Assembly: GCA_964384825.1 (NCBI GenBank)
Contig: CAYLMM010000003.1
Span: 48,463-112,462 of the forward strand
DNA: 64,000 nt
DNA from: an uncultured Fibrobacteraceae bacterium
GTDB taxonomy: Bacteria; Krumholzibacteriota; Krumholzibacteriia; LZORAL124-64-63
Direction: 5' to 3'
This document shows positions 25,911 to 58,103 of this stretch, in pieces; within the stretch, counting starts at the first letter, position 1; each line of letters starts with the position of its first letter. Below the pieces are notes generated by a model. That model saw only the letters and a program-made list of their open reading frames with translations. It had not been told where the DNA came from and ran no database searches. The position numbers were made by a program, and so were the translations under genes.

Positions 25911-28091
25911 TCAGTCTGCGAACAGGCCCGCGGCGTCGATCGTCGCGGGCTTTCCCGTGCGCAGGCTCTCGACGCCCTTGATGGTGGCCAGGGTCACGGC
26001 GAACTGCGAGACGAGCGGGATCGCCGGCTCTCCGGTGCGCACCGCCTCGAGGAAGGCGGCCACCTCCTCGGCCTGGCCCTTGCCCGGGCAGCGCTTGCCG
26101 CGCTTCTTTCCGCCGCCGTAGAGCTCCACCGACGAGAAGTTGTCGATCACCGCGGTGCGGTCCGCGCCGGAGATCTCCAGCCGCTCCTTGGGCAGGTTGC
26201 CGGCGCCGTGGGCGAAGTAGCCCACCGTGCCGATCGATCCGTCGGCGAAGCGCAGGTTCAGCAGCAGGTCGTCCTCGGGGATGCGATCGGTTTCGGCGCC
26301 GACGCAGATCGCCCGCACCTCGATCGGATCGGCGCCGCAGAGGAACTGCATCAGGTCGATGAAGTGGCAGACCTCGCCGATCAGCCGGCCGCCCCCCTGC
26401 TCGGGATCCTGGATCCAGTGCTTGCGGGGGATCGACCCGGCGTTGACCCGGTACATCATCGTCAGCGGCCCGGGTTCGGCGCCGAAATGCCGCCGGGCCT
26501 CGCGCGCGGCGGGCGAGAAGCGGCGGTTGAATCCGACCTGCAGGACGGGCGCGCCGCCGCCGGCAGCGGCCTCGCGCATCGCCGCGGCGATCGCACGGAG
26601 CTGTTCCTCGTCCAGGCACAGCGGCTTCTCGACGAAGACGTGCCGGCCGGCCTTCAGGGCGGCCAGGGTCTCGGGCCCGTGGCTGTCGTGGCGCGAGGCG
26701 ATCACCACCGCGGCGGTGTCGGGATCCTCGTGCACCGCGGCGGTCGAATCGACCGCGCGGGCGAAGCCGTAACGCCGTCCCGCATCGGCCGCGGTCAAGC
26801 CCGACTTGGTGTGGATTGCGGTCAGCCGGGCGTCCGCGGCGTTCTTGAAATGCGGCAGCAGGAAGGCCTGGGCGTAGGATCCCGCGCCGATGCAGCCGAC
26901 CCCGATCGCTCCGGAAGGCGCGGCCGCGGTCGTCAGTTCGACGGGCGCCGGCGCGGCCTCGGGACGGTCCGGATATTCCAGCAGCACGCCGGTGAAGGGT
27001 TCGGCCTTGTCGGCGATCAGCTTGTAGGCCGCCGGCGCCTCGGCGAAGGGGAAGCGGTGGGTGACCATGCCCAGCGGGTCGATGCGTCCGGCCGCGCAGA
27101 GGTCGAGGAAGGCCTCCATGTTGCGGCCCTCGGTCCAGCGCACGAAGCCGTAGGGATAGTCCAGCCCGCCCTCCTCGTAGGAGGGATCGTAGCGGCCCGG
27201 GCCGTAGGAGCACGAGACCGAGAAGCGGATCTCCTTCTCGTAGTAGTCGGGACGGGGCAGGTCCATGCCCACCGCGCCGACCACGATCACCCGGCCGCGC
27301 TGGCGGACGATGCGGCCCGCGGTGGTGACCGGTTCGCTGCTCGGGGTCGCCGCGCAGATCAGCACCAGATCGGCCCCGCGGCCGCCGGTGAAGCGTTCGA
27401 TGCCGGGTTCGACCGCGTCGTCGCCCGTGAGGAAGGCCTCGTCGACCGCGCCGCGGCGCCGGGCCTGCTCGACCGCCTCGGGGGAGACGTCGATCCCGGC
27501 CACCCGGCAGCCGTTGGCCCGCAGCATCTGACCCGCGAGTTGGCCGATGATGCCCAGCCCGACGACCACGGCCGTCTCGCCGAGCGTGGGCTCGGCCAGG
27601 CGCAGCCCCTGCATGGCGATCGCGCCGATGGTGGCGAAGGCCGCCGCGTCGGGCGCCACGCCTTCGGGAACCGGGACGACCAGGTTCGCCGGCACGACCA
27701 CTTCGTCGGCGTGGTTGGCGTAGCCGCCGCCGCCGCAGGCCACCAGATCCCCGGGCTGCAGCCCCGAGACGCCTTCACCGGTCTCGATGACCTCGCCGGC
27801 CAGGCTGTAGCCCAGCGGCTGGGCGCCCTCGAGCTTCGAGCGCACCTTCCGGATCGTGCCCTTGATGCCGACCGAGCGGGCCATGTCCAGCACCATCTTC
27901 ACCTGGTCGGGCCGGGCCTTGGCCTTGCCCAGCAGCGATTTGCGCCCGGTGACGATCTTGTTGCCCTCGGTGCCCGGGCTGACCGCGGAAAAGAGGGTGC
28001 GGACCCGGACGCAGCCGGGGGCCAGGGCGGGGGCGGGGGTCTCCATCATGGTGACCGCGCCGTCGTTGAGTGTCAGGGCCAGGATCTTCAA
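25911..28091 (-). CDS. bi-domain oxidoreductase: MDR/Zn-alcohol-dehydrogenase-like N-terminal half fused to a Gfo/Idh/MocA NAD(P)-dependent oxidoreductase C-terminal half
   Basis: The N-terminal half has GDLVACGG and GLGIIGQLAGQ (MDR Rossmann). The C-terminal half has IGVGCIGAGSYAQ, EKPLCL and GFNRRF (Gfo/Idh/MocA). Confidence 0.8.
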   Translation of the reverse strand: MKILALTLNDGAVTMMETPAPALAPGCVRVRTLFSAVSPGTEGNKIVTGRKSLLGKAKARPDQVKMVLDMARSVGIKGTIRKVRSKLEGAQPLGYSLAGEVIETGEGVSGLQPGDLVACGGGGYANHADEVVVPANLVVPVPEGVAPDAAAFATIGAIAMQGLRLAEPTLGETAVVVGLGIIGQLAGQMLRANGCRVAGIDVSPEAVEQARRRGAVDEAFLTGDDAVEPGIERFTGGRGADLVLICAATPSSEPVTTAGRIVRQRGRVIVVGAVGMDLPRPDYYEKEIRFSVSCSYGPGRYDPSYEEGGLDYPYGFVRWTEGRNMEAFLDLCAAGRIDPLGMVTHRFPFAEAPAAYKLIADKAEPFTGVLLEYPDRPEAAPAPVELTTAAAPSGAIGVGCIGAGSYAQAFLLPHFKNAADARLTAIHTKSGLTAADAGRRYGFARAVDSTAAVHEDPDTAAVVIASRHDSHGPETLAALKAGRHVFVEKPLCLDEEQLRAIAAAMREAAAGGGAPVLQVGFNRRFSPAAREARRHFGAEPGPLTMMYRVNAGSIPRKHWIQDPEQGGGRLIGEVCHFIDLMQFLCGADPIEVRAICVGAETDRIPEDDLLLNLRFADGSIGTVGYFAHGAGNLPKERLEISGADRTAVIDNFSSVELYGGGKKRGKRCPGKGQAEEVAAFLEAVRTGEPAIPLVSQFAVTLATIKGVESLRTGKPATIDAAGLFAD

Positions 28092-31233: not shown

Positions 31234-32760
31234 TCAATCGCCGCGGCGCCAACGGCCGCGGGGCAACGCGGGCAGGGGAACCCGCATCAGCAGCGTCGCG
31301 GGTCCGACGATCAACAGGAATACCACGGCCGTTCCGGCGGCGACAAGGCCGGAGACCCAGAGCGAAGTCGTGCTCCACATCGACATCAGGCCGGCGGCCC
31401 GGCCCGCCGCGGCCGTCAGGGCGAAGGCCAGCAGCGAAGGCGCGAGCGGCAGCATGAACCGGCCGTAGCCGATGCCGAGGATCCGGGCGGTGTAGATCGG
31501 CTGGATGATCAGCTTGATCAGCAGCATCGGGATGGCCGTTCCCAGGGCCACGCCCACGATGCCGTACCTGCCCACAAGCAGCAGGCTGAGCACCAGGTTC
31601 GCGGCGCCTTCGGCCAGGTTCTGCCAGGCGTAGTAGCGGTGCTTGTTCGTGGCGTAGAGCAGGCCCAGCGCCGGGTTCTGGGCCAGCGCGAAGGCGTACC
31701 CCCCCGCCAGGACCCAAAGCACGGGCATCGAACCGAGGAAGTCCCGGCCCACCCAGATGTTGATGAACTGGCCGCCGAGAACCAGCGCCAGGGTGCAGAG
31801 CCCGAACGAGAGCGGGGCGGTCACCGAAAGGGCCTTCATGAACAGGCGCTGCATCTCGCTCCGGTCGCCGCGGGCGTCGATCGAAGCGAAGCGGGGGGTG
31901 AGCACGCCCGAGGCGGTGCCGATCAGGCTGACCACGTGGTGCATGATGTTGCCGGCGATGGCGTAGACGGCGATGGCCTCGGCGCCGACCTTCTTGGCGA
32001 TCACGAAGCTGTCGAGCGAGAACCGCAGCCGGTCGCCGACCACGATCAGCGTCGCGATGCCGCCGAAGGTCAGCAGCGTGCCCGCGACGCCGCGCCGGAC
32101 CAGCCCCGGGCGGATGCGTATCTCCGGCAGCCGCCGCCGCCAGAGCATCAGGCAGAGGATGAAGCGCGCCAGGCTCGTGCCCAGGTTGGCGAACGCCACC
32201 CCGAGCAGCCCCATGCCGGCCTCCAGCAGCACCACCGTCAGCGCGGCCTGCAGCACATGGGTTCCGATCATCGCCATGTTCAGCGGCACGAAGAGTTCCC
32301 GCGCCCGCAGCAGGGCCGCCAGCACGCTGGTCAGCAGGGTGAAGAGGGTGCCCACGGCCAGCACGATGATCACCCGCGCGAAGATGCCGGAGAATTCGGG
32401 GTCGACCTCGAAGAAGCCGGCCAGCGGACCGGCCAGCAGCAGGGTCGCGACGATGAGCGCCGCCCCGACGGCCGTGAAGATGGCCGTCGACGTGCTGGCG
32501 GTCACGCTTGCGGCATGGAAATCATCGAGAGCCGATTGGCGGGCGACGTAGCGCATCACGGCGGAATCCACGCCCATCCGCAGGATGCCGTAGTAGCCGA
32601 CGATCGCCAGGATCAGCGACCAGATCCCGTAGCCGGCCTTGCCGATGTGGGAGATGATGAAGGGCGTCAGCAGCAGGGCCATCAGGACGTGCGTCAGCAG
32701 CGCGGCCCAGTTGCTGGCCGCGTTCGCGTAGATCGAGGGCCTGCGCCGGGCGGCGGTCAT
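31234..32760 (-). CDS. MOP-superfamily oligosaccharide flippase (Wzx-like)
   Basis: Start at MTAARRRPSIYANAASNW. About 12 predicted TM helices. The start overlaps the upstream GT stop (ATGA). The 817-aa track ORF is an upstream read-through. Confidence 0.75.
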   Translation of the reverse strand: MTAARRRPSIYANAASNWAALLTHVLMALLLTPFIISHIGKAGYGIWSLILAIVGYYGILRMGVDSAVMRYVARQSALDDFHAASVTASTSTAIFTAVGAALIVATLLLAGPLAGFFEVDPEFSGIFARVIIVLAVGTLFTLLTSVLAALLRARELFVPLNMAMIGTHVLQAALTVVLLEAGMGLLGVAFANLGTSLARFILCLMLWRRRLPEIRIRPGLVRRGVAGTLLTFGGIATLIVVGDRLRFSLDSFVIAKKVGAEAIAVYAIAGNIMHHVVSLIGTASGVLTPRFASIDARGDRSEMQRLFMKALSVTAPLSFGLCTLALVLGGQFINIWVGRDFLGSMPVLWVLAGGYAFALAQNPALGLLYATNKHRYYAWQNLAEGAANLVLSLLLVGRYGIVGVALGTAIPMLLIKLIIQPIYTARILGIGYGRFMLPLAPSLLAFALTAAAGRAAGLMSMWSTTSLWVSGLVAAGTAVVFLLIVGPATLLMRVPLPALPRGRWRRGD

Positions 32761-33927: not shown

Positions 33928-34887
33928 TCACCGCGCCGCCTCCAGTGGAGCCCCGAGCACATGGACACGGCTCCGTTCGTTTCCCCAGACGCTTTGGATC
34001 ACGGTTCGTTTCGCCGATCGGTTCAGATGGTACGGATCGGAGAAATTCCCCCGGTCCGAGGTCAGATCGTTGACGAAGTCGAAATCGTAGACCGGCGCCA
34101 GGGCGGCCAGGTCCCGCTTGAACCGCTCGTATTCCTTTTCCAGCCCGTAGCGGCCGACCTGGGCCTGCAGATCCGCGTGGCCGGGGAAGATCACCAGCCT
34201 CAGATCGATGCCCCGCTCGCGGCAGTACGACGCCACCTCTGCCAGACGCCGCCGGTAATCCTCGGGATAGCGGTAGTTGTCGTAATAGATCCGCGTCGTG
34301 GACTCGATCTGGTGGCGCCAGAAATCGTCGGCCGACATCGGCGGCCGGCCCACCTCGATCTTCTTTCCCAGCAGCCGGCGCTGCAGCAGCTTGCCGGTCG
34401 CGTCCAGCACGTTGATGTCGCTGAAGTAGAGCAGCGGGTTGGCGAGGATCGCTTCGACCTCGGAGATGCGGTCCTTGGCGTTGGTCGCGCTGTAGAGGTT
34501 GAAGTTCACGCCGATGCAGACCCGCCGCAGTTCGGCGCGCTCGGCGGCGAACCGGAAGCTGCGCAGGATCTCCTCGAGCGAGGCGCCGCCGTAGGCCAGG
34601 TTGGCCCAGGGTTCGCCGGTCGCCGCGGCGACCGAATCGGGTGCGATCCCCATCATCCGCGAATCCCCGAGCAGGATGTTCGGCAGCGGGTCGTTCCGGT
34701 AATGCAGCAGCTTCCACAGCGGGTAGTGCAGCCGGAAGGAGATCTCCTGCTTGTCGGCGTCGGGGACCAGGCGCGACACGCCGAAGAAATCGTAGGGGTC
34801 GACAGCCACGATCACCAGGCCGTAGAGCAGCAGCGGCACCGCGAACAGGGCCGTCTTGCGCAGCAGCTTTTTGACGTCGTTCGGCAT
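33928..34887 (-). CDS. SGNH/GDSL-like protein with an N-terminal TM anchor (DltD/AlgJ-like partner of the MBOAT acyltransferase)
   Basis: A TM helix ALFAVPLLLYGLVIVAV. LLGDSRM is the GDS block I. FSDPYHLN is the DxxH block V. It lies immediately downstream of the MBOAT gene. Confidence 0.55.
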   Translation of the reverse strand: MPNDVKKLLRKTALFAVPLLLYGLVIVAVDPYDFFGVSRLVPDADKQEISFRLHYPLWKLLHYRNDPLPNILLGDSRMMGIAPDSVAAATGEPWANLAYGGASLEEILRSFRFAAERAELRRVCIGVNFNLYSATNAKDRISEVEAILANPLLYFSDINVLDATGKLLQRRLLGKKIEVGRPPMSADDFWRHQIESTTRIYYDNYRYPEDYRRRLAEVASYCRERGIDLRLVIFPGHADLQAQVGRYGLEKEYERFKRDLAALAPVYDFDFVNDLTSDRGNFSDPYHLNRSAKRTVIQSVWGNERSRVHVLGAPLEAAR

Positions 34888-36384: not shown

Positions 36385-36519
36385 CGGCCGCGCAAGCCTC
36401 CATGCGGCGGATAGGGGGGGATCCGGGGACGGATCCTCCATATTCGCCATCGGATCCGGCATTGGGCCGGATCCCGGGGGAAAGGTCGATCGCCGCGACG
36501 TGAACCGGGCGAGGTTGTC

Positions 36520-36548
36520 TTGACGTGGACATCGGACTGGAATATAAT
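36520..36548 (+). promoter_or_regulatory. near-consensus sigma70 promoter (TTGACG-N17-TATAAT) in the divergent EPS-locus intergenic region
   Basis: tTGACGtggacatcggactggaaTATAATtcc reads toward the + strand operon starting at 36778. Confidence 0.45.
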
Positions 36549-36626
36549 TCCTGAAGCCATTTTAGCCGCATGGCTGCGATTTTTCCACTCCCCATCCGCC
36601 CAAGGAGTCCGACGAGTTGACTTTTT

Positions 36627-36641
36627 GTTAAAGCGTTTAAC
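36627..36641. promoter_or_regulatory. 15-bp palindrome GTTAAAgcgTTTAAC in the 5' leader of the + strand EPS operon
   Basis: A perfect 6-bp inverted repeat with a 3-bp spacer in an AT-rich leader. Confidence 0.25.
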
Positions 36642-36777
36642 GCCAACGACGAATATGTCAACGTAGCAATGCTGCGGACTTTCCGGGGTGCGGCTTTTCC
36701 TGAACTCCCCGGTCGTACATTATTCAAGCGCTATCCGGCATCGCCCCTCGCCCGAGAGAGTGCAGGCGGAGGGAAGC

Positions 36778-37512
36778 ATGGCGGATAAGCGGGAGCGGCA
36801 GATGAGCAAGATCCTCGAAGCGATGCGCAAGACCGGCGGAGCCGCCGACTTCGGATTCCGGCTCGAGACCCTCGGCGTCGAAAGGCTCTTTCCGGCTCCG
36901 GTCGGACGGCAGGTCGCGGAATTCGAGAGGCTTGCCAACGAGCTGCTGAGTCTCCACACCGGGGAACGCGGCCTGGTCCTGACCTTCGCCTCGAACGCCC
37001 GGGGCGAAGGCGCGAGCTACGTCTCGTTCAACGTCGCGCGGCATCTCTCGGTCCTGCTGGACCGCAAGATCGCCTGGATCGACGCCAACTTCCTCTCCCC
37101 GCAGCGCAGCATCGAGGCCGAGGGCTGCAATTTTCGCATGCTTCTGGAAAACCCCGGCCGGCTCGACGAGCTCGATACGGCGGGCAATCTGGCCGTCATC
37201 CCGAACGTGGATTCGAAGTTCAAGGCGACCCATCTGATCGCCGGCCCCGGCTATCCCGAACTGCTGCGAGCCTGCCGCGAGAAATTCTTCTTCACAATTC
37301 TGGACGCGCCCCCGATTCTGGAATCTGTCGATCTGGTGCATATCGCGCGACCGACCGACGGCCTGGTCGTGGTGATCGAGGCTCGCAACCTCAAGCACGA
37401 GATCATCAATCACGGCATCGAGACCGTCGGCGCCCAAGGGGTCAGGGTGCTGGGATCCGTCATCAACCGGCGGACCTTCGACATCCCCGGCTTCCTGTAC
37501 AGCAAGCTTTGA
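36778..37512 (+). CDS. BY-kinase/CpsD-like P-loop domain protein with a degenerate Walker A (Lys->Ala)
   Basis: The Walker A-like motif is SNARGEGASYVSFNVA, versus the consensus GEGKS. The Walker A' is IAWIDANF and the Walker B is FFFTILDAPP. There is no C-terminal Tyr cluster. Start at MADKRERQ (GGAGGG RBS). Confidence 0.65.
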   Translation: MADKRERQMSKILEAMRKTGGAADFGFRLETLGVERLFPAPVGRQVAEFERLANELLSLHTGERGLVLTFASNARGEGASYVSFNVARHLSVLLDRKIAWIDANFLSPQRSIEAEGCNFRMLLENPGRLDELDTAGNLAVIPNVDSKFKATHLIAGPGYPELLRACREKFFFTILDAPPILESVDLVHIARPTDGLVVVIEARNLKHEIINHGIETVGAQGVRVLGSVINRRTFDIPGFLYSKL

Positions 37513-37541
37513 GCAAGGATCCCAGTCAAGGAGGAGCCCCG

Positions 37542-38330
37542 TTGAATGCGGGCACGTCTCACCACATTCCGATCCGAGGAATCGCGCTCGTGCTCGGCTT
37601 CGCCCTCGCGGCCGTCCTGGCCGGATGCGCGGGCAACGGCCACGGCTCCCTGCGAACCGAGGTGCATCCCTATTCCGCCGAGGAAAAGGCCATGCTCGAG
37701 CAGGCCCGCCGCGCCGAGTACCGCCTGCACCCCGGGGACCAGGTCGATATCGTCTTCGACTACGCGGAAGGCCTCGACCAGTCCGGTCTGGTCGTGCTTC
37801 CCGACGGGCAGATCACTCTCGGGGGCATCGGCTCCGCCCGCGCCGCGGGCCTGACCGTCGCGGAATTCGACAGCGTCCTGACGGCATCCTTCGCGGAAAA
37901 CTACCGCGATCCCTCGCTTTCGGTCGTGGTCCGCAGCCTCGCCGAGAAGCAGGTCTACGTGCTGGGCGAGGTCGGCCGGCCGGGCCTGACCACCCTGCCG
38001 CAGCACGGAGCGAGCGTGCTGCAGGCGATCGCCGCCGCCGGCGGCTTCACGTCGCACGCCGATCCGGCCGAGGCCGTCGTGATCAGGGTTACGCCGGATG
38101 GGTACGTCTATCGCCACTGCGATCTGTCCCATCTCGAAAAGGGCGGCCTGGGCATGGCCGGCATGGTGGTGCTGAGCCCCTTCGACGTGATCTACGTGCC
38201 TCGTTCGCCGATCGGGGATCTGGCGTTCTTCACCAAGAACGTGCTGGGGACCGTGCTCGATCTCACCGACCTGTATTGGGATATCTACGCCATGAGCAAT
38301 CTGGACAAGGTCGACCGGTTGACGCGCTAG
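37542..38330 (+). CDS. polysaccharide export outer-membrane lipoprotein (Wza-like)
   Basis: The TTG start at 37542 is preceded by a CAAGGAGGAG RBS. The lipobox is LAGC. The Poly_export block is PGDQVDIVFDY, followed by an SLBB-like region. Confidence 0.75.
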   Translation: MNAGTSHHIPIRGIALVLGFALAAVLAGCAGNGHGSLRTEVHPYSAEEKAMLEQARRAEYRLHPGDQVDIVFDYAEGLDQSGLVVLPDGQITLGGIGSARAAGLTVAEFDSVLTASFAENYRDPSLSVVVRSLAEKQVYVLGEVGRPGLTTLPQHGASVLQAIAAAGGFTSHADPAEAVVIRVTPDGYVYRHCDLSHLEKGGLGMAGMVVLSPFDVIYVPRSPIGDLAFFTKNVLGTVLDLTDLYWDIYAMSNLDKVDRLTR

Positions 38331-38345
38331 GGGGAGAGGACCAAC

Positions 38346-39746
38346 ATGCAGCAGAACAATTCCGGCAATCCCGCCCCCTTGGCGTCTCGTTCCCGGAACT
38401 ATGATTTCAAGGAATTGCTGTCGATCATCATCCGCCGGCGCTGGATCATCCTGGCGATCACCCTGCCGATCATCCTGGCCGCCCTCGTCGGAACCCTGCG
38501 CACCACCAACTCGGTCACCGCGAGCACCCTGGTGATGGTCGAGCCCCGCCAGCCGGAGAACCCGACTCTCGGCGGCGTCTTCATCAACGACGATGTCGTG
38601 ATGAGCACCGCCGCCCAGTTGGCCATGAGCATTCCGGTCGCGCAGCGGGCGGCGGCGGCCGTGATCGATTCCGTCCGCTCCCTGGCCGAATCCGACCTCG
38701 CGCTGAGCAACCTCCATGACGAATCCGATCTGATGAGCGCGATGCTCGAGGGCGTCGATTGCCGTCAGCGCGCGGAGTCGAACATCCTGCAGATCACCTA
38801 CTCGCACCCCAACGCCCGGTTCTGCCTGTTGGTCGTGGGCGCCCTGACCGGAGCCTTCATCGACTACAACATCGAGCGGCGTCAGAATCCCCGCGCCATC
38901 GGCTACTATTCCGACCAGATCCGGTCCGTCCAGTCGGAGGTCGACAGCCTGATGACCATCCGCGCGCGGGTGCTCGATTCGGCCGGAATCTCCTCCTTCA
39001 CGGACAATCCCACCTCCAGCGTCAATCAGATCCGCTTCCTCGAGCAGGAATATTTCAGGGCCCGCTCACGGCGGATCGGGACCGAGGGGAAGTTGATTCG
39101 GCTGCGAAGGCTGCTGCGGGAGGATCCGGACTTCGTGCCGAAGGACGACAACCTGCGCGGTCTGAAGGCCACCTATGAAGCGCGTCTGGCCAGGATGGCC
39201 GAACTGAGGACGCGGTACAACGAGGGCACTCCCCAGATCCAGCATCAGCAGGAACTGATCGATTCCGCCCGCCGGGATCTGGACCGCGGCCGCCGCGACC
39301 ACGCCTCCTGGCTGGAACTCCAGCTCGAGGAGGCCCGCGGCATCGAGAATTCCCTTCGCGAGTCTGTCGAGCGGCAGTCCGACAGCCTGGAGGATTTCCC
39401 GGAAACCGCCCGGGTCGTCGATTCGCTGAACCTGCAGATCAAGGCGCGGCAGGACCTGCTCGAGAGCCTGCAGTTCAAGCGGGGGGAGGTGCGGCTGAAG
39501 TCCGACAGCGATATGCGCATCAGCAACATCGTTCCGATCAACGAGCCCTCGATCGAGAGCGTCGTCGCCGGCAGCAAGAAATTCCTCTACATGGGATTGG
39601 CCGTCTTCTTCGGCCTGGCCCTGGGCCTGATCTGCGCCCTGTTGATCGACAGCCAGGACCACCGTATATACGGGCCGCGCCAGGTCGAGCAGAATCTGGA
39701 CGTTCCGGTCCTGGGGGCCGTCTCCTCGGGCAGGAAGGGCGACTGA
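38346..39746 (+). CDS. polysaccharide co-polymerase / chain-length determinant (PCP, Wzz/GumC-like), no kinase domain
   Basis: An N-terminal TM helix WIILAITLPIILAALVG, a long coiled-coil periplasmic region and a C-terminal TM helix FLYMGLAVFFGLALGLICALLI. Confidence 0.75.
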   Translation: MQQNNSGNPAPLASRSRNYDFKELLSIIIRRRWIILAITLPIILAALVGTLRTTNSVTASTLVMVEPRQPENPTLGGVFINDDVVMSTAAQLAMSIPVAQRAAAAVIDSVRSLAESDLALSNLHDESDLMSAMLEGVDCRQRAESNILQITYSHPNARFCLLVVGALTGAFIDYNIERRQNPRAIGYYSDQIRSVQSEVDSLMTIRARVLDSAGISSFTDNPTSSVNQIRFLEQEYFRARSRRIGTEGKLIRLRRLLREDPDFVPKDDNLRGLKATYEARLARMAELRTRYNEGTPQIQHQQELIDSARRDLDRGRRDHASWLELQLEEARGIENSLRESVERQSDSLEDFPETARVVDSLNLQIKARQDLLESLQFKRGEVRLKSDSDMRISNIVPINEPSIESVVAGSKKFLYMGLAVFFGLALGLICALLIDSQDHRIYGPRQVEQNLDVPVLGAVSSGRKGD

Positions 39747-39750
39747 CGCC

Positions 39751-41259
39751 ATGCTGGAGCGGCCAGAGGTCCGGCCCCGGCTCGTCGATCGGTGGATGCG
39801 GATCGACACGATTTCCCTGTTCACGCCGCTGATCTTCCTGGCCGTGCTCGTGTTCTCCTTTTTCGTGGTTTCGCGTTTCGGCCTCCAGGCGCTGGTGTTC
39901 GCCCTGATCGGGATGATCGCCTTCGCGTTGATGACGCTGGTTTCGCTGCGCAACCTCAGCTTCGCGCTGATGTGCTGGTTCTTCTCGATGGCGGGCTTCC
40001 GCTGGATGGGCATGGTCAGGATGCCCGGCCTGCCCGACTTCTCCTTCGACCGCCTGTTCCTGGTCTGGATCATCGGCATCTTCCTGCTGCGGCTGATCCT
40101 GGACCGCCGGCGGCTGAAGGGGCCCTACGCGGCCGACGTCCTGGTCCTGCTGCAGGCCTTTTACGTGCTGATCCAGTTGAACGCGACGGGCTCCATCCAT
40201 ATCCATGCCTGGGTGATCAGCAGCCTTTCGCCGATGTTCGGTTTCTTCTACGGGAAATACGTGGTCGAAAGGGAGAACCAGATCCGGGACATCATGCTGT
40301 TCCTGCTGGGGTTGGCCATCTACTTCTCGTTCACCGCGATCGCCGAACATTTCCACTGGAACTCGCTGATCTGGCCCAAGCAGATCCTCGATTCCGACGT
40401 GGGGCATCTCTGGCAGCCGGGGCGGTCCCGCGGGCCGGTGATGCATCCGCCCTATTTCGGCCAGTTGCTGGCCATGCTGCTCCTGGTCCACTTCTACCTG
40501 TTCACCCGCCCGTGGGGGGGCGTGCGCCGGGCGCTGCTGTTCATCTCCCTGTTCATGTGCACCCTGGGGCTGTTCTTCGCCTACACCCGCGGTCCCTGGC
40601 TCGCCGCGGCCGTCGGAATCCTGACCCTGGCCGTTTTCCGTCCCAACTACCGCAAGGTGGTGGCCGTGGTCGTGATCGTGTGCGTCCTGGCCGGCGCCTT
40701 CGGCCTGTTGCAGGTGGCGGATACGGAGTTCCTGCAGAAGCGCATGGAGAACACCAACACCATCCAGAACCGGATGATCTTCCTGGCCAGCGCCTGGGGC
40801 ATGTTCAGGGACCACCCCGTGTTCGGGATCGGATATCTCAAATACACGAAATTCCGGGAGCAGTACTCCTTCGGCACCGAGGTGCCGTTCTACGGCTACG
40901 TCAGGCGATCTTTCAGCGAAGGCATGTCGATCCACGACATCTACATCGGGCGTCTGGCCGAGGAGGGCCTGGTGAGCGTGCTCCTGCTCGCGGCCTTCAC
41001 CTTCGTGATCCTGAGGACGTTGATAGCCAGGTGGAGGTCGGGCGTGTGCGGCCCCTGGTACGACCGCGATATGCTCGTGTTCATCCTGGCGGCGATGGTC
41101 TGCTATCATGTCGGGGGCATGGTCATCGATTACCGGAACTTCGATCTGCTGAACGTCTTCTACTACTTCTTCGCCGGAATCATCTACGGCTACAAGGGCC
41201 GGACGCCGGCCGCCGCACCCGCAGCCGCTCCGAGGGAAAAACGCGTCGGAGTCCGCTGA
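39751..41259 (+). CDS. O-antigen ligase / Wzy-like polysaccharide polymerase family membrane protein
   Basis: A ~12-TM protein with a large loop containing YTRGPWLAAAVG. Its position between the PCP and a flippase fits a polymerase/ligase role. Confidence 0.55.
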   Translation: MLERPEVRPRLVDRWMRIDTISLFTPLIFLAVLVFSFFVVSRFGLQALVFALIGMIAFALMTLVSLRNLSFALMCWFFSMAGFRWMGMVRMPGLPDFSFDRLFLVWIIGIFLLRLILDRRRLKGPYAADVLVLLQAFYVLIQLNATGSIHIHAWVISSLSPMFGFFYGKYVVERENQIRDIMLFLLGLAIYFSFTAIAEHFHWNSLIWPKQILDSDVGHLWQPGRSRGPVMHPPYFGQLLAMLLLVHFYLFTRPWGGVRRALLFISLFMCTLGLFFAYTRGPWLAAAVGILTLAVFRPNYRKVVAVVVIVCVLAGAFGLLQVADTEFLQKRMENTNTIQNRMIFLASAWGMFRDHPVFGIGYLKYTKFREQYSFGTEVPFYGYVRRSFSEGMSIHDIYIGRLAEEGLVSVLLLAAFTFVILRTLIARWRSGVCGPWYDRDMLVFILAAMVCYHVGGMVIDYRNFDLLNVFYYFFAGIIYGYKGRTPAAAPAAAPREKRVGVR

Positions 41260-42797
41260 TGACCGGATATCTGAAGAAGCATCTCTTCGAAGGCGAAATC
41301 CTGCGCCTGATGGCGATCATCCTGCTGATCAAGCCCCTGGGACTGCTGGCCCAGATGGTCCTGGCCGCGAGCTTCGGAGCGGGCGCCGATTACGATGCCT
41401 ACACGCTGGCCCTGTTCCTGGTCGGATACGTGTCTTCGGTGGGGGGGCAGGTGTTCTCGGCGATCGTGCTGCCCTACGTGATCCGTCTGCGGGCAAGCAT
41501 GTCCGAGCAGGGGGTTTTCGGCTTCCTCAACGCCGCGGTCCTCGGATTCCTGGCGCCCGCCGCCTTGGTCGCCCTGCTGCTGGCCCTCGGGGCGGAGCCT
41601 GCCGTTCGTCTAGCCGGACCCGGCCTTCCCGAAGAGACGCATCGTCTCGCCGTGCGCCTGGTGCGGCTGCTTGCGGTTCCCGGCGCGTTGGTCGTCGGCG
41701 TCGCGATGGCGCAATCGGTGCTTCATGCCCACGGCCGTTTCCGGCTCGCGACCGCCCTGCCGGCGGCCAACAGCGTGATCATGCTGTCCTGCGTCCTGCT
41801 GCTGCGCGAACGCCTGGGAATCCTGGCCGCGGCGCTGGGCTTCGGCGTCTCGGTCGCGGCGCGGCTGCTGCTGGCCGGCGGCGCGGCCTTCGCCCGCCGC
41901 TGCATGGGCGGCGCCCGGCCGTCCCTGCCGCCCGGCGCCGCCTCCCGGCTTTGGGCGTTGGGCTGGATGACGCTGGCGATCCAGGCCATCCTGGTTCTCT
42001 ACTCCTTCATCGACAAGGCTTTCGCCGCATCGCTGCCGCCCGGCGCCATCTCTTCGCTGAGTTACGCCATGACCTTCGTCGGCTTCGGCACCCAGCTCTT
42101 CTCGCTGACGCTGGTGACGGTCATGTTCACTCGGATGTCGCAGATGATCGCCGCCGGCGAGACGGAGCTCTGCGACCGCTACCTGGCGGAGAACGTGCGG
42201 CGCGTCTCGCAGCTGGTCGTTCCCGCCTCGATCATCGTCATGGCCGCTTCCGGCGAGATCGTGGGCGTCCTCTTCCAGCGGGGCGCGTTCACCTCTGCCG
42301 ACACGCTCCGCACCTCGGGGGTCCTGGCGATGTACGCCCTGGGCCTGCCTTGCTTCGTGGTCAACGGAGTGATAACGCGGGTCTTCTATTCGCTGCAGAG
42401 GATGCGTGAGAAGGTGTGGCTGGCGGCCATGTACCTCGGCACCAACGTGCTGGGCAACGCGCTGCTGATCGGGCCGCTGGGCGTCCGGGGACTGGCCCTG
42501 TCCTCGGCGATCTCGATCAATCTGCACGTTGCGACCTCGCTCTGGATCCTTCACCGGTACCGGATCGGCATCGACGGCCGGAAGCTGGGGTTCGTAATGG
42601 CCAGGGACTACGCGGTGGGTCTGGCGAGCTGGCTCGTCTATCGCTTCGCCGGGCCGGCGGCGATGCTGGATCGATGGAGCCCCGGGGGCGAGCCGGCCGC
42701 CTCCATCCTGACGGCCGCCGCACGCGCCGCCGTCATCGCGGCCCTGTTCGTGATTTGCCGTTCGCTCCTCGCCGCGTTCGGGCGCCATCGACGCTAG
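41259..42797 (+). CDS. MOP-superfamily flippase (MurJ/Wzx-like polysaccharide biosynthesis protein)
   Basis: Start at MTGYLKKHLFEGEILRLMAIILLIKPLG, 1 nt past the previous stop (TGATG). About 14 TM helices. Confidence 0.7.
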   Translation: MTGYLKKHLFEGEILRLMAIILLIKPLGLLAQMVLAASFGAGADYDAYTLALFLVGYVSSVGGQVFSAIVLPYVIRLRASMSEQGVFGFLNAAVLGFLAPAALVALLLALGAEPAVRLAGPGLPEETHRLAVRLVRLLAVPGALVVGVAMAQSVLHAHGRFRLATALPAANSVIMLSCVLLLRERLGILAAALGFGVSVAARLLLAGGAAFARRCMGGARPSLPPGAASRLWALGWMTLAIQAILVLYSFIDKAFAASLPPGAISSLSYAMTFVGFGTQLFSLTLVTVMFTRMSQMIAAGETELCDRYLAENVRRVSQLVVPASIIVMAASGEIVGVLFQRGAFTSADTLRTSGVLAMYALGLPCFVVNGVITRVFYSLQRMREKVWLAAMYLGTNVLGNALLIGPLGVRGLALSSAISINLHVATSLWILHRYRIGIDGRKLGFVMARDYAVGLASWLVYRFAGPAAMLDRWSPGGEPAASILTAAARAAVIAALFVICRSLLAAFGRHRR

Positions 42798-42935
42798 CGA
42801 CACCGGCGGACGGCTCCTCGCGAACGGGAACCGGGTGATTTCGTCTGGCCCGCGCGTGGACCGTCGGGTATCTTGAAGGCCGATTCGGCCGTTCGCCGCG
42901 CCGCCCTTACGGGCAGCCACTTACCTGGAAGAGGC

Positions 42936-44576
42936 ATGATGTATCTCGAACATTTCGGTCTGGTCTCCGACCCCTTCTCCCTGCGGCCGCACCTGCGGTT
43001 CCTCTACGACTCCACGCCTTTCGAGGAGACCATGTCCCACCTGGTCTACGGCCTCGAGAACGGCGAGGACATCATCGGGATCACCGGCGAGATCGGCACG
43101 GGCAAGACCATGGCCCTGCACAGCCTGCTCGAACACGTGCCCGCCACCCATGCGATGGTCCTGGTGAACGTGACCCAGCTCACCTTCGACGAGATGCTGA
43201 AGCTGATCCTCGAGGATCTCGACGTCCCGGTCTCGGGGCCGGTCGACCGGGGCGATCTGGTGGCCGCCCTGAAGCGCAAGACCGTCGAGCTGCAGCGGGC
43301 GGGCCGCCGGGTCCTGCTGGTCGTCGACGAGGCCCAGAACCTGGACGTCGAAGCTCTCGAGGGGCTGCGCCTGCTGACCAACATCGGCCAGCCGCGCGGA
43401 CAGGCCCTGCAGATCATCCTCTCCGGCCAGCCGGGGCTGAGCGAGAAACTCGATCGACCCGAACTGGCCCAGCTGAAGCAGCGGATCCGGGTGCATTACC
43501 ATCTGGACACCCTGGACATGAAGGAGACCCGCGAGTACGTCGACCATCGCCTGAGCGTCGCCGGCAGCACGCGCGAGATCTTCAGCGCCAAGGCCTTCGC
43601 CCGGGTCCACGAGCTTTCCGGGGGCGTTCCCCGGCTGGTGAACATCGTCGCCGACCGGGCTCTGCTCGCCGCCTTCGTCGACGGTTCCCGGACCGTGGAG
43701 GAGAAGCACGTCGAGCGGCAGGATCTGGTGCGCGCGCCCGGCGGAGCCTCGGCCGGCGCCTCCGCCGAACCGGCTCCGGATCCCGCCGCCTCCCGCGCGG
43801 CCGTTCCCGGTGACCAACCCGATGCGGGGCCGGATGCGGGGCCGGATGCGGAATCCGACGCCGAACCCGCGGCCGGCGCCGACTCCCGGCTGTCGGGAGG
43901 CTCCCTGGCTGTCCGGCGTCCCCGCCGGCGTACACCGATCGGGGCCGTGGCGGCGATCCTGACGGTCGTGGCCGTCCTGGTCTGGATCTTCGCCTTCGGC
44001 GGATTCGAGACCCTGCAGGACGCGGGCGTCGTCTCGTTCGGCGGCCAGGACGCCGGACGGGTCGCCCAGCCGGCGGCCGGAACGGCGTCATCCCCGGCGG
44101 ATCCGCGGCAGGATGCCGACCTGCCGGTCGAAGCGGCTTTCCCGCCGGACATGGCGGACGCCGAACCGCAGGACTCCGATGCGGCAGAGGCGGCGGCCGA
44201 TTCCGCGTCCCTGTCCGTCACCGCGGCGGCCGCTGCGGCGGAGATTGATTCCGCCGCCTCGGTTGCGGCTTCCCCCGCCGGCGCCCGGCCCGCGGAAGAC
44301 CCGTCCGGGCACGGCGAAAACGTGATCTCCGGAAGGCCCGACTCGGGTTATTACGTGCATGTGGGCTCGTTCCTCGACATCGCGCGCGCCGAGCGCCTGC
44401 GCGGGAGCCTGGCCGGCGATCTGCAGGCGATCATCTGGATCAAGGAGATCGGCGACAAGACCTGGAACCGCGTCTTCGTCGGTCCCTATCCGGACCAGGA
44501 CGCCGTCGGCGAAGCCGAGATTTTCCTGCGCGGCAACCCCGGGGTCGATTCCACGCTGATCCACAGGATCCGCTGA
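42936..44576 (+). CDS. ExeA/GspA-like AAA+ ATPase with a TM segment, an acidic repeat linker and a C-terminal SPOR (peptidoglycan-binding) domain
   Basis: The Walker A is GEIGTGKT and the Walker B is LLVVDEAQN. A TM helix AVAAILTVVAVLVWIFAF. The SPOR-like C-terminus is YYVHVGSF...IWIKEIGDKTWNRVFVGPY. Confidence 0.75.
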   Translation: MMYLEHFGLVSDPFSLRPHLRFLYDSTPFEETMSHLVYGLENGEDIIGITGEIGTGKTMALHSLLEHVPATHAMVLVNVTQLTFDEMLKLILEDLDVPVSGPVDRGDLVAALKRKTVELQRAGRRVLLVVDEAQNLDVEALEGLRLLTNIGQPRGQALQIILSGQPGLSEKLDRPELAQLKQRIRVHYHLDTLDMKETREYVDHRLSVAGSTREIFSAKAFARVHELSGGVPRLVNIVADRALLAAFVDGSRTVEEKHVERQDLVRAPGGASAGASAEPAPDPAASRAAVPGDQPDAGPDAGPDAESDAEPAAGADSRLSGGSLAVRRPRRRTPIGAVAAILTVVAVLVWIFAFGGFETLQDAGVVSFGGQDAGRVAQPAAGTASSPADPRQDADLPVEAAFPPDMADAEPQDSDAAEAAADSASLSVTAAAAAAEIDSAASVAASPAGARPAEDPSGHGENVISGRPDSGYYVHVGSFLDIARAERLRGSLAGDLQAIIWIKEIGDKTWNRVFVGPYPDQDAVGEAEIFLRGNPGVDSTLIHRIR

Positions 44577-44579
44577 GCC

Positions 44580-45809
44580 GTGAACGTCGAAGCGAAACGC
44601 CGTCCGCTGCGCGTCGCCCAGTTCATCGAGACCCTCGAGACCGGCGGCGCGGAGCATCTCGCCATCCAGATCGCCAACGGCCGGGCGGCCGCCGGCGACG
44701 CCTCGCACCTCTATGTCATGCGCGGCCCCGGAGCCCTGTCCCCGCGGATCGCCCCGGACGTCCGCGTGCGGTACCTGCGTTTCGAACGGGCCTCGATCGG
44801 CGCGCCGCCGCGATTCGCCGCCTCGCTGCTGCGCGGTTCACGGATGCTCCGCTCCCGGATGGACGAAGACCGGATCGACGTCCTGCAGACCCACCTGCCC
44901 GGATCCAATTATTGGGGGTTGCTGCTGCGCCTGCTGGGCGTGCGCGGGATCGTGCCGACCATCCACAACAACCAGGAATTCGGCTACGGAGAATCGGTCT
45001 CGGGATTCCGGATGCGATTGCGGCGCGCGGCCTACGGACTGATGCTGCGCCGCTGCCCGGCAACGGTCTGCGTTTCGGAGATGGTCAAGAGGTCGATGAT
45101 CGACGAGCTGGGGCTCGACCCGGGGACCGCCGCCCGAATGGCGGTGGTGCCCAACGGCGTGCCGGTGCCCGCGCGCCGCGATGCGGCCGTTCTGGCCGCG
45201 ACCCGGGAACGGTACGGCGTTCCCGCGGATTCCCCCTTCCTGCTGGCGGCCGGTCGGCACACCGAACAGAAGGATTTCCGGACCCTGATCGACGCCGTCG
45301 GACGGCTGCGCGCATCGGGCCGGCGGCCGCGGCTGGTGCTGGCGGGCGACGGTCCGCTGCGCGAGAGCCTGCGCGCGCAGGCCGAGGCCGGGGGACTCGC
45401 CGGGACCGTCATCCTGCCGGGCAACGTCGAAGATCTGGGCGACCTCTTCCAGGCGGCCGACATGTTCGTGATGAGTTCGCTCTGGGAAGGACTGCCCCTG
45501 GTCCTGCTCGAGGCGCTGGCTTCGGGCTGCGCCGTGGTGGGGACGCGCATTTCCGGCATCGACGAGATTCTCGGCGGCGGCGAGGGGGCGTCCGGCGCCG
45601 GGCTGCTGGTCCCGCCCGCCGATCCCGATGCGCTGGCCGAAGCGGTGGCCTCGCTGATCGACGATCCGCAGCGTCGCGCCGTTCTCGGCGCCGCCGGCCG
45701 CGCCCTGGTCGAGGATCGTTTCAGCTTCGCGCGGGTCGACCGCGATCTCGGCGAACTCTACGCCCGGGTGGCCGCCGGCCGCGCTCCGGAGCCGGAGGCC
45801 CGCGCATGA
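44580..45809 (+). CDS. GT4-family glycosyltransferase
   Basis: LRVAQFIETLETGGAEHL and SSLWEGLPLVLLEALASGCAVVGT (EX7E). The start is GTG. Confidence 0.75.
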   Translation: MNVEAKRRPLRVAQFIETLETGGAEHLAIQIANGRAAAGDASHLYVMRGPGALSPRIAPDVRVRYLRFERASIGAPPRFAASLLRGSRMLRSRMDEDRIDVLQTHLPGSNYWGLLLRLLGVRGIVPTIHNNQEFGYGESVSGFRMRLRRAAYGLMLRRCPATVCVSEMVKRSMIDELGLDPGTAARMAVVPNGVPVPARRDAAVLAATRERYGVPADSPFLLAAGRHTEQKDFRTLIDAVGRLRASGRRPRLVLAGDGPLRESLRAQAEAGGLAGTVILPGNVEDLGDLFQAADMFVMSSLWEGLPLVLLEALASGCAVVGTRISGIDEILGGGEGASGAGLLVPPADPDALAEAVASLIDDPQRRAVLGAAGRALVEDRFSFARVDRDLGELYARVAAGRAPEPEARA

Positions 45810-47959: not shown

Positions 47960-49237
47960 TCAGTCCAGCCGGATCCAGTCGTCGCCGTAGATCGCCCGCG
48001 GGAAGAGCCGCGGCACCAGCCCGTAGAGGAACTGGCGCAGCTTCAGCGCCATGTGGCTGGCGGTGTGCGATCCGTGCACCGTGCGCAGGAACCCCTCGAG
48101 CGTGTAGATCTGGATCTCGACCTTGAAGCTGTAGGGCGGCCGCCCCGGCTCGGGGTTGGGGTGCAGGATGTCCAGGTCCCCCTTGAAGACCTTGTATCCC
48201 TTGCCCGATTGCGGATTCAGCCGCGAACCGCCCGGCTGCTCGCTCGAGGTGTCGGTGACGTTCCGCCAGCGGAGCAGGCTGCCGAACATGTAGCCGAAGA
48301 CGCCCAGCAGCTCGCTCAGCTGATCGTCGTTCGGCACGATGAACATCGCGCCGAGCAGGTCGGAGATGTCGTCGGGATCGGCGATGTTGCGGCGGATCAT
48401 CTTCGAGAGGATCGAACCGTTGCGGCTGCTGCTCATCGACTCCCAACGGCGGCGCTCCAGCACGCGGTGGCGGCCGCCGACGATCTCGTAGCTGACCGGG
48501 GTCACCGACCGCTTGAAGCGGCAGCTGTAGTAGAGGATGTCCAGCGGAGTCTTGCGGTCGCGCACCAGGGGCTCGACGTACTTCGAGTTGAAGGTCCAGA
48601 CCTGCTGACCGGGCCGCTGCCCGATGTTGTAGAGGATCGATTCGCCGTCCTGATCGATCTCGAAACCGACCTGGATGTCGTGGGTCTCGCTGCAATGCCG
48701 CCAGAGCCCGTCGGTGATCAGGTTCTCGAAGAAGGTCTTGTGCCGAGGTCCGTCCTGGATGTCGCGGGAGTGGTCGATGTCGATCAGCAGCTGGGCGAGG
48801 TAGAGCTTCCGCTGCGCCTCGTAGCGGGTGCGGCGGTCCTCGCGGCTGAAGAGCAGGCCGAGCAGGGTCCGCAGGTCGTTGCAGGCGGTGATCCTGGGCA
48901 GCGGCTCGACGCGGGCTCCGGCCTCGTCGGGCAGCAGTTCGGCCAGCTCGGCCAGGTAGGCGTTCACCTCGTTCAGATAGTCGACCATCCGCGGCTGGTC
49001 GTCGCGCTGCGGGGGTGTTCCGATCGGATGCAGCAGCTTGGCGATGTTGGCGCGGTAGGTGTCCTCGTCGATGCGGGAGCGCTTGAAGATCTGCCAGAAT
49101 ATCCGGCCCTGGCGGGTCGGCCGGTCGATGTAGCGGGGATCGAGATAGGGATGGGCGTCGAAGGAGACATCCCAGGGGTCGCCGTTCTGGCCGGCGGGGC
49201 GGCGGAGTTGGAAGGAATCGACCCAGCGCTGATTCAT
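47960..49237 (-). CDS. hypothetical protein with a C-terminal RelA/SpoT-like (alarmone-synthetase-fold) nucleotidyltransferase domain
   Basis: The C-terminal ~190 aa align by eye to the synthetase motifs. SILSKMIRRN...DLLGAMFIV corresponds to RxKS..S...K / D..GxR. NPQSGKGYKVFKG corresponds to NGYQSxH. FKVEIQIYT corresponds to VEIQIRT. The N-terminal ~230 aa has no recognisable family. Confidence 0.55.
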   Translation of the reverse strand: MNQRWVDSFQLRRPAGQNGDPWDVSFDAHPYLDPRYIDRPTRQGRIFWQIFKRSRIDEDTYRANIAKLLHPIGTPPQRDDQPRMVDYLNEVNAYLAELAELLPDEAGARVEPLPRITACNDLRTLLGLLFSREDRRTRYEAQRKLYLAQLLIDIDHSRDIQDGPRHKTFFENLITDGLWRHCSETHDIQVGFEIDQDGESILYNIGQRPGQQVWTFNSKYVEPLVRDRKTPLDILYYSCRFKRSVTPVSYEIVGGRHRVLERRRWESMSSSRNGSILSKMIRRNIADPDDISDLLGAMFIVPNDDQLSELLGVFGYMFGSLLRWRNVTDTSSEQPGGSRLNPQSGKGYKVFKGDLDILHPNPEPGRPPYSFKVEIQIYTLEGFLRTVHGSHTASHMALKLRQFLYGLVPRLFPRAIYGDDWIRLD

Positions 49238-57997: not shown

Positions 57998-58103
57998 GTC
58001 CCCGGCCTTTTTCCCACCCGCTTCAACTGCTATCTTGTCTTGCCTGGATACGGCGGCCGCCGATTCGGCGTCGCCGACCTTCGTCCGTATTTCGAGGTGG
58101 AGC

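Follow-up and report, generated by a model that had tools for sequence, protein, structure and literature searches.

A lysine-less, stand-alone BY-kinase homolog encoded together with a kinase-less co-polymerase in an exopolysaccharide operon of Krumholzibacteriota: a probable pseudokinase

Pseudokinase relatives of the bacterial tyrosine (BY) kinases are already published as a kind of protein, represented by EcpK, HfsB, GumC and PslE. EcpK and HfsB are stand-alone proteins, which bind the cytoplasmic C-terminus of a class 2 polysaccharide co-polymerase (PCP-2) devoid of a kinase domain and are needed for polysaccharide synthesis; the function of EcpK in Myxococcus xanthus is independent of bona fide BY-kinases (PMC12004946). 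In PslE from Pseudomonas aeruginosa, the Walker box is without its lysine and the tail contains one tyrosine; this protein exhibits no kinase activity and has no Wzb phosphatase, works as a stable octamer and tolerates cross-linking between its subunits (PMC13434223). For the true kinases, it was reported that mutants of the Walker A lysine in Wzc and VpsO (K-to-M or K-to-A) and in ExoP are catalytically dead, that Wzc K540M nonetheless keeps ATP-Mg binding and oligomerization, and that the second Asp of the Walker A' motif may recognize the tyrosine substrate and drive the chemistry (PMC9800525). Here we analyze a protein of 244 aa encoded at positions 36778–37512 (+) of a 64,000-nt stretch of DNA (henceforth "the window") from an uncultured bacterium of the phylum Krumholzibacteriota (GenBank assembly GCA_964384825.1, contig CAYLMM010000003.1, positions 48,463 to 112,462). 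By analogy to the systems listed above, we consider it probable that this protein is a BY pseudokinase, which docks on the tail of the PCP encoded in the same operon and acts independently of phosphorylation.

The gene comprises an intact open reading frame (ORF). An alternative in-frame start at ATG 36802 would yield a product of 236 aa beginning with MSKIL, and it is equally plausible, because most homologs begin with these residues; the true start is therefore ambiguous, but the argument presented below is unaffected by the choice. Pfam returned no match for the protein and NCBIfam only weak ones, below the respective cut-offs (TIGR03018: 45 bits vs 230.65, TIGR03029: 43 vs 313.8, TIGR01007: 39.2 vs 108.05). 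A profile built from 47 family members and searched against the PDB identified the kinases VpsO (E-value 4e-27), CapB1 (2e-24), BceF (6e-23), Etk (4e-21) and Wzc (7e-20) as the best matches, followed by PslE (7e-11) and by proteins of the Mrp/MinD/ParA type (1e-9 or weaker), and the profile alignment reaches the N-terminal helix region of BY-kinases. The AlphaFold2 (AF2) model of the protein (predicted local distance difference test, pLDDT, 79.5; predicted TM-score, pTM, 0.81) used as a query in Foldseek retrieved the kinase domains of Wzc, CapA-CapB, VpsO and Etk as top matches with probability 1.0. Thus, the protein has the BY-kinase P-loop fold.

This fold assignment bears on the names that homologs carry in source databases, namely "Mrp family chromosome partitioning ATPase" (JGI) and "tyrosine autokinase", both of which are misleading; a tblastn search of plasmids likewise returned only generic "tyrosine autokinase" annotations, at 23–30% identity. 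If the former name were right, the protein would be a ParA/MinD/Mrp-type ATPase unrelated to PCP function, as might also be suggested by the weak profile matches to such proteins (1e-9 to 1e-7). However, the matches to BY-kinases are better by 15 to 18 orders of magnitude and include the N-terminal helix region, the deviant Walker A motif KGGxGK[ST] is absent (the stretch from strand 1 through the P-loop to helix 1, residues 60–97, has no Lys at all), and the gene is in strict synteny with genes for an outer-membrane polysaccharide export (OPX) protein, PCP and Wzy. We regard a ParA/Mrp identity as very improbable and reject it on these grounds.

The Walker A motif of the protein reads G76-E77-G78-A79-S80 (37003–37017 (+), codons GGC GAA GGC GCG AGC) and departs from the canonical pattern GX5GK[ST]. 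As the family consensus GeGaS aligns with GEGKT of VpsO, GAGKS of CapB and GIGKS of BceF in the profile alignments to VpsO, CapB1, CapB2 and BceF, A79 falls exactly on the position of the Walker A lysine. A preliminary description of the locus had proposed this replacement, and alignment to CapB and the other kinases bears it out: the P-loop register is as first read and no shifted lysine was found, hence we discard the possibility of a mis-registered P-loop. The same description took the Walker A' motif to be intact, which turned out to be wrong. The segment W-I-D102-A-N104-F-L-S-P (37075–37101 (+)) corresponds to I-D-x-D-x-R-K-P in canonical kinases (family consensus iDAnFlsP opposite IDCDLRKP of VpsO and IDGDMRKP of CapB), and where the canonical motif has four hydrophobic residues followed by DxDxR, the sequence AWIDANFL has the second Asp replaced by Asn104 and the Arg by Leu; family-wide, this region has the form D[AG]N[FHY]. 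The Walker B motif FFFTILDAPP (37285–37314 (+)), on the other hand, is retained as initially stated, with FTILDAPP fitting the pattern of four hydrophobic residues followed by DxxP, and with an invariant D176. The oligomerization motif ExxRxxR is lost: E-K-F-R-G-I-R of CapB aligns with A47-E-F-E50-R-L-A53, and the family consensus is ExxExxA.

The protein ends with NRRTFDIPGFLYSKL and, as noted earlier, its tail contains a single tyrosine, Y241 (37498–37500), with no C-terminal tyrosine cluster in the last 30 residues. The segment N230-RRTFDIPGFLYSKL (37465–37509 (+)) fits the motif N[KR]Rx[FY]x[IL]Pxx[IL]Y[RK][RK][LI]-COOH, typical of the wider clade described below. Y241 sits 11 residues past N230, near the start of the tyrosine cluster of CapB; most homologs have one tyrosine in the tail and a minority have two. 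In the AF2 model of the monomer the tail is unstructured (pLDDT <50).

A word-indexed search of 5.8 billion proteins yielded 96 homologs (30–95% identity), 94 of which have a recognizable P-loop. Lysine is absent from the Walker A position in all 94 of them, which are 37–95% identical to the protein, its place being taken by A (45 sequences), T (19), N (11), C (10), S (7) or V (2), so the check among homologs that the preliminary description had called for confirms the loss of Lys in general and the presence of Ala specifically in 45 of the 94. A sequencing error at this codon, or a decaying pseudogene, would account for nothing but the missing Lys, and the family-wide loss excludes it; besides, the ORFs are intact, many columns of the alignment are invariant, and the conversion of AAG or AAA to GCG needs at least two substitutions. 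We reject this explanation, whose probability is practically negligible. In 47 aligned sequences the residues G76, G78, S80, D102, D176, G226, N230, R232, P237 and Y241 are invariant, while position 75 is variable and no conserved Lys or Arg is found beside the P-loop that could compensate for the loss. Taken over the family, the residues for phosphotransfer are lost and those of the Mg2+/phosphate site (P-loop glycines, Ser80, Asp102 and Asp176) are kept; besides the Lys of Walker A, the losses comprise two residues of Walker A' (the second Asp and the Arg), the oligomerization motif ExxRxxR and the tyrosine cluster.

One group of homologs with ~30% identity (P0086-P0095) has a Cys-rich P-loop, G[CSA]GCSWVC, with three Cys residues, and keeps DANF, LIDAPP and the FLYRRL tail. 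Metal binding or a redox function may distinguish this sub-family from the other pseudokinases.

When 1.84 billion cluster representatives were searched exhaustively with HMMER, 5705 matches with E ≤ 1e-3 were obtained, 262 of them with E ≤ 1e-10. Among the 142 best representatives (of clusters at 50% identity) with an aligned P-loop, 135 have no Walker A Lys and 107 have Asn in place of the second Walker A' Asp; the Walker B Asp is kept in 129, and the Ser/Thr after the position of the missing Lys in 139. A C-terminus of the form P-x3-Y-x(2-6)-COOH was found in 119 lysine-less representatives. Twelve of the 142 are 517–752 aa long, which indicates that they are fused to PCP. The protein from the window belongs, then, to a large clade, which includes both stand-alone and PCP-fused forms that share the lysine-less P-loop and a C-terminal IPxFLYRRL with an invariant Tyr, and which is not covered by any of the curated Pfam or NCBIfam models. 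The few matches that do contain the Lys mostly have Tyr-rich tails instead. Two such relatives (P0215 and P0220) have a tail in which LPxYL(Y/S) is followed by a long tyrosine cluster, and look like intermediates between the single-Tyr tail and the canonical cluster, which suggests that Y241 is derived from the first Tyr of a former cluster.

The putative partner of the pseudokinase, encoded two genes downstream and thus separately from it, as had been pointed out before, is a PCP-2 co-polymerase without a kinase domain (38346–39746 (+), 466 aa). It possesses a Wzz domain, is EpsF-like (E 4e-27), and has two hydrophobic segments according to the hydropathy analysis (residues ~27–50 and ~413–435); its position is conserved in every locus that is long enough to show it. 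The C-terminal cytoplasmic tail of this protein, DSQDHRIYGPRQVEQNLDVPVLGAVSSGRKGD (39648–39743 (+)), shows the pattern DHRIY..LxVPVLGxVS, conserved across 30 related loci, and resembles the C-terminal fragment of CapA, LGLPILGSI, which binds and activates CapB. By analogy to this fragment, the PCP tail is a probable docking segment for the pseudokinase.

The conservation of gene order was studied in 34 related loci from metagenome-assembled genomes of Krumholzibacteriota, several of which are labelled by the depositors as "uncultured Fibrobacteraceae". The pseudokinase gene is followed by the OPX gene in all 34, and the order pseudokinase-OPX-PCP-Wzy is found in every one whose contig is long enough, down to 39% identity. 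In the 64-kb window, neither the scan of ORFs nor the motif search revealed a canonical protein with GxGK[ST] and DxDxR, a DxDxR motif, or a signature of a low-molecular-weight protein tyrosine phosphatase (LMW-PTP, Wzb) or PHP (CpsB) phosphatase. With a kinase-less PCP-2, OPX, Wzy and a flippase encoded next to it, the protein conforms to the description of BY pseudokinases such as EcpK (with EpsV) and HfsB (with HfsA) (PMC12004946). Hence the earlier suggestion that the protein is a variant of the Wzc/CapB module, either a pseudokinase or an ATP-binding scaffold, is supported, as judged from the fold, the family-wide losses, the synteny with a kinase-less PCP-2 that bears a CapA-like tail, and the lack of canonical kinase and phosphatase motifs in the window.

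We propose that the pseudokinase would dock on the PCP-2 by way of the conserved tail at the C-terminus of the latter, in analogy to CapA/CapB, EcpK/EpsV, HfsB/HfsA and PslE, to form a bipartite, phosphorylation-independent complex that would organize Wzy-dependent polymerization and OPX-mediated export of an exopolysaccharide (EPS) in this Krumholzibacteriota bacterium. Two further elements of this model are put forward with lower confidence. First, as the residues of the Mg2+ site are kept, their sequence suggests that the pseudokinase may still take a closed conformation with bound Mg-nucleotide, without turnover. Second, the unstructured tail with the invariant IPxFLY(R/K)(R/K)L probably makes a constitutive contact in trans, with a neighboring protomer, with the base of the transmembrane helices of PCP or with the membrane interface; such a permanent contact would stand in for the reversible one that the tail of the true kinases makes under the control of phosphorylation.

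Several points weigh against this proposal. The strict conservation of the P-loop glycines, Ser80, Asp102, Asp176 and Tyr241 seems to exceed the needs of a pure scaffold, and residual or unconventional nucleotide chemistry is therefore possible. The loss of the ExxRxxR motif means that the formation of a Wzc-like ring is not assured. The rest of the genome, outside the window, may hold a canonical kinase or phosphatase, and a chimera of the PCP tail and the pseudokinase, built from the window sequences only and folded without an alignment, gave an uninformative model (pLDDT 32).

The first of these points invokes an alternative, namely an active kinase or ATPase of an unconventional sort. In such a protein a basic residue from elsewhere, either relocated within the protein or supplied by the PCP tail, would replace the Walker A Lys, and Tyr241 would serve as the autophosphorylation site. 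The invariance of G76, G78, S80, D102, D176 and Y241, the placement of Y241 near the start of the CapB cluster, the relatives P0215 and P0220, which combine a canonical Lys with LPxYLY followed by a tyrosine cluster, and the conserved basic residues of the PCP tail (DHR, RR) are all compatible with such an enzyme. Nevertheless, the second Walker A' Asp is gone along with the Lys, and position 79 is free among small residues (A/T/S/N/V/C), as expected in the absence of a catalytic role; the variable position 75 and its surroundings offer no conserved Lys or Arg as compensation. Moreover, the comparable K-less, single-Tyr PslE is without kinase activity (PMC13434223), as are Wzc, VpsO and ExoP once their Lys is mutated (PMC9800525), and no phosphatase motif was found in the window. 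An active enzyme of this sort therefore strikes us as improbable. We hold a similarly low opinion of the possibility that a canonical BY-kinase from another part of the genome has the protein as its substrate or adaptor, and would phosphorylate Tyr241 in trans and thereby regulate the complex. Such a role would agree with an invariant Tyr241 in a flexible tail, and our view is limited to 64 kb of the genome; on the other hand, none of the 34 loci has a canonical kinase or phosphatase gene near the module, over ~±8 kb, as judged from the visible gene content rather than from an exhaustive scan, and EcpK of M. xanthus works independently of bona fide BY-kinases (PMC12004946).

Among the proteins already described, PslE (PDB 9v75/9v6l) from the Psl pathway exhibits a close likeness to the proposed pseudokinase. 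Both have a lysine-less P-loop, alike in shape (GEGVT vs GEGAS, within SARHGEGVTF vs NARGEGASY), a similar Walker B motif (VLLDAPA vs TILDAPP), a single tail Tyr and the sequence NRRxF[DE][IV]P after the last strand, and both belong to Wzx/Wzy pathways with an OPX partner. However, PslE is fused to PCP, whereas the protein from the window is a stand-alone one of 244 aa, and the PslE tail NRRRFEVPSKVLQTIARYR, which continues as SKVLQTIARYR, lacks the terminal FLY(R/K)(R/K)L. The similarity to PslE is also weaker than to the canonical kinases (7e-11 vs 4e-27), so the Lys could have been lost independently in the two lineages.

EcpK (MXAN_7447) of M. xanthus, together with EpsV, resembles our system in having a stand-alone BY-kinase fold without the kinase determinants, a kinase-less PCP-2 partner and a Wzx/Wzy/OPX pathway, and it was also proposed to be a scaffold on the C-terminal tail of PCP (PMC12004946). 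Yet EcpK has lost all three Walker motifs, several secondary structure elements and every C-terminal Tyr, and it ends in a basic helix (PMC12004946); its description sets it apart from the protein from the window, in which the fold is complete and the following are preserved: the glycines and Ser of the P-loop, the first Asp of Walker A', the Walker B motif and the invariant C-terminal Tyr. Furthermore, ecpK is not adjacent to epsV, while the pseudokinase and PCP genes of the window are in one operon. HfsB (with HfsA) from the Caulobacter crescentus holdfast system and GumC from Xanthomonas, which we compared by description, are likewise BY-kinase-like proteins or domains without the catalytic residues and/or the Tyr cluster, needed for Wzy-dependent polysaccharide synthesis or modulating it (PMC12004946, PMC9800525), but they come from Alpha- and Gammaproteobacteria, and GumC is a fused form.

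The split arrangement of PCP and a kinase-like protein of the same fold is shared with CapB/CapA from Staphylococcus aureus, EpsG/EpsF and the XrtA-associated TIGR03018/TIGR03007, and the PCP tail LxVPVLGxV is similar to LGLPILGSI of CapA. Unlike the BY-kinases of the CapB/EpsG type, the protein from the window has neither the Walker A Lys nor ExxRxxR, its DxDxR is not intact and it has no Tyr cluster, and its gene lies upstream of OPX and PCP, while the gene for a CapB/EpsG-type kinase comes after that for PCP. The locus also resembles those of the XrtA type, with their export protein, chain-length determinant, kinase-like protein and TIGR03015-like ATPase. The XrtA/PEP-CTERM models TIGR03027, TIGR03007, TIGR03018 and TIGR03015 all match here, but all of them below the cut-off, so that the locus does not qualify as XrtA-type, and no exosortase was found among the scanned ORFs of the window.

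A more specific variant of the pseudokinase model may be considered, which we offer only tentatively as it is rather unlikely to be right in full. The protein could be a kinase frozen in one state, with Mg-ATP or Mg-ADP held at GxGx[ST], Asp102 and Asp176 as a non-hydrolyzing latch, and with the tail, as a remnant of the first cluster Tyr, either inserted permanently as a pseudo-substrate into the degenerate active site of the neighbor or clamping the base of the PCP transmembrane helices. This would give a constitutive ring, the assembly of which would follow the nucleotide or Mg2+ state of the cell instead of phosphorylation. If true, such a frozen kinase would represent a widespread and uncurated third mode of PCP-2 control, in stand-alone as well as fused proteins.

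As previously recognized, the pseudokinase gene comes first in the + strand operon; it lies past a divergent MBOAT gene, and the genes of the operon are tightly spaced. Next to it is the OPX gene (37509–38330 (+); Pfam Poly_export and SLBB, NCBIfam TIGR03027-like), which probably starts not at TTG 37509 of the longest ORF but at TTG 37542, with AAGGAGG in front of it; the product from TTG 37542 has a lipoprotein-type signal with the lipobox LAGC. The PCP gene is followed by genes for a Wzy-type polymerase (Wzy_C/O-antigen ligase family, 39751–41259 (+)), a MurJ-family flippase-like protein (41271–42797 (+)) and an AAA_22 ATPase that carries a peptidoglycan-binding SPOR domain at its C-terminus (42873–44576 (+)). 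The ATPase, present in most of the related loci, is similar to the XrtA/PEP-CTERM-associated ATPase model TIGR03015, at 228 bits and thus below the cut-off of 324.5, and its GTGKT is the only canonical Walker A motif in a real gene of the window. A GT4 glycosyltransferase (44580–45809 (+)) closes the conserved module.

A promoter-like site, TTGACG-17-TATAAT, was found upstream of the pseudokinase at 36520–36548 (+), with 11 of 12 matches to the consensus as compared to 0.2 such sites expected in shuffled sequences; it is identical in two related loci (L001 and L005) and is followed by a leader of ~230 nt. Long blocks of the leader (region 36463–36801), including TTTTGTTAAAGCGTTT and CGCCAACGACGAATATGTC, are nearly identical in the same two loci, even though the encoded proteins are only 73–75% identical. 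The 5' leader may be regulatory, for instance an antitermination element as in other polysaccharide operons; its conservation is not detectable in more distant loci, and a comparison of the leader with Rfam gave no credible match.

On the minus strand, upstream of the operon, there are further EPS genes, encoding the MBOAT protein, a GT4 glycosyltransferase, a Wzx-like flippase, a pyruvyl transferase, an AsnB-like protein and an oxidoreductase fusion. The locus thus has two flippase-like genes, the MurJ-family one in the operon and the Wzx-like one (Polysacc_synt_3/MOP) at 31234–32760 (-). The fusion protein (25911–28091 (-), 726 aa) combines a zinc-type alcohol dehydrogenase with a GFO/IDH/MocA oxidoreductase; in many of the related loci, its gene immediately precedes the pseudokinase module. 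Two ORFs, 33928–34887 (-) (319 aa) and 47960–49237 (-) (425 aa), are well supported by codon composition and have no match in Pfam or NCBIfam; the former is flanked by the MBOAT and GT4 genes, and L001 has a counterpart of it in the same place. Elsewhere in the window we found a topoisomerase VI subunit B-like protein (18166–19866 (-); Topo-VIb transducer and HATPase_c), with no adjacent gene for the A subunit among the scanned neighbors, and a protein of 755 aa (58035–60302 (+)), whose last ~155 residues form the N- and C-terminal domains of GreA/GreB; the preceding region of ~600 aa has no Pfam match and makes this protein unusually long for a Gre factor.

The protein described here is a real but fairly ordinary further example of an already described type. 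It adds a representative of a candidate phylum, Krumholzibacteriota, to the recently defined phosphorylation-independent PCP-2 systems, and places it in a large lysine-less clade that has escaped curation. This clade includes stand-alone and PCP-fused proteins, accounts for at least 135 of the 142 best representatives (clusters at 50% identity), and is marked by a C-terminal motif of sharp conservation and by the residues that it keeps at the Mg site. For proteins of this clade, the automatic names "tyrosine autokinase" and "Mrp family ATPase" are misleading. The residues that bear on the question of whether such a pseudokinase is a scaffold or a nucleotide-gated latch are A79, N104, S80, D176 and Y241, together with the tail.

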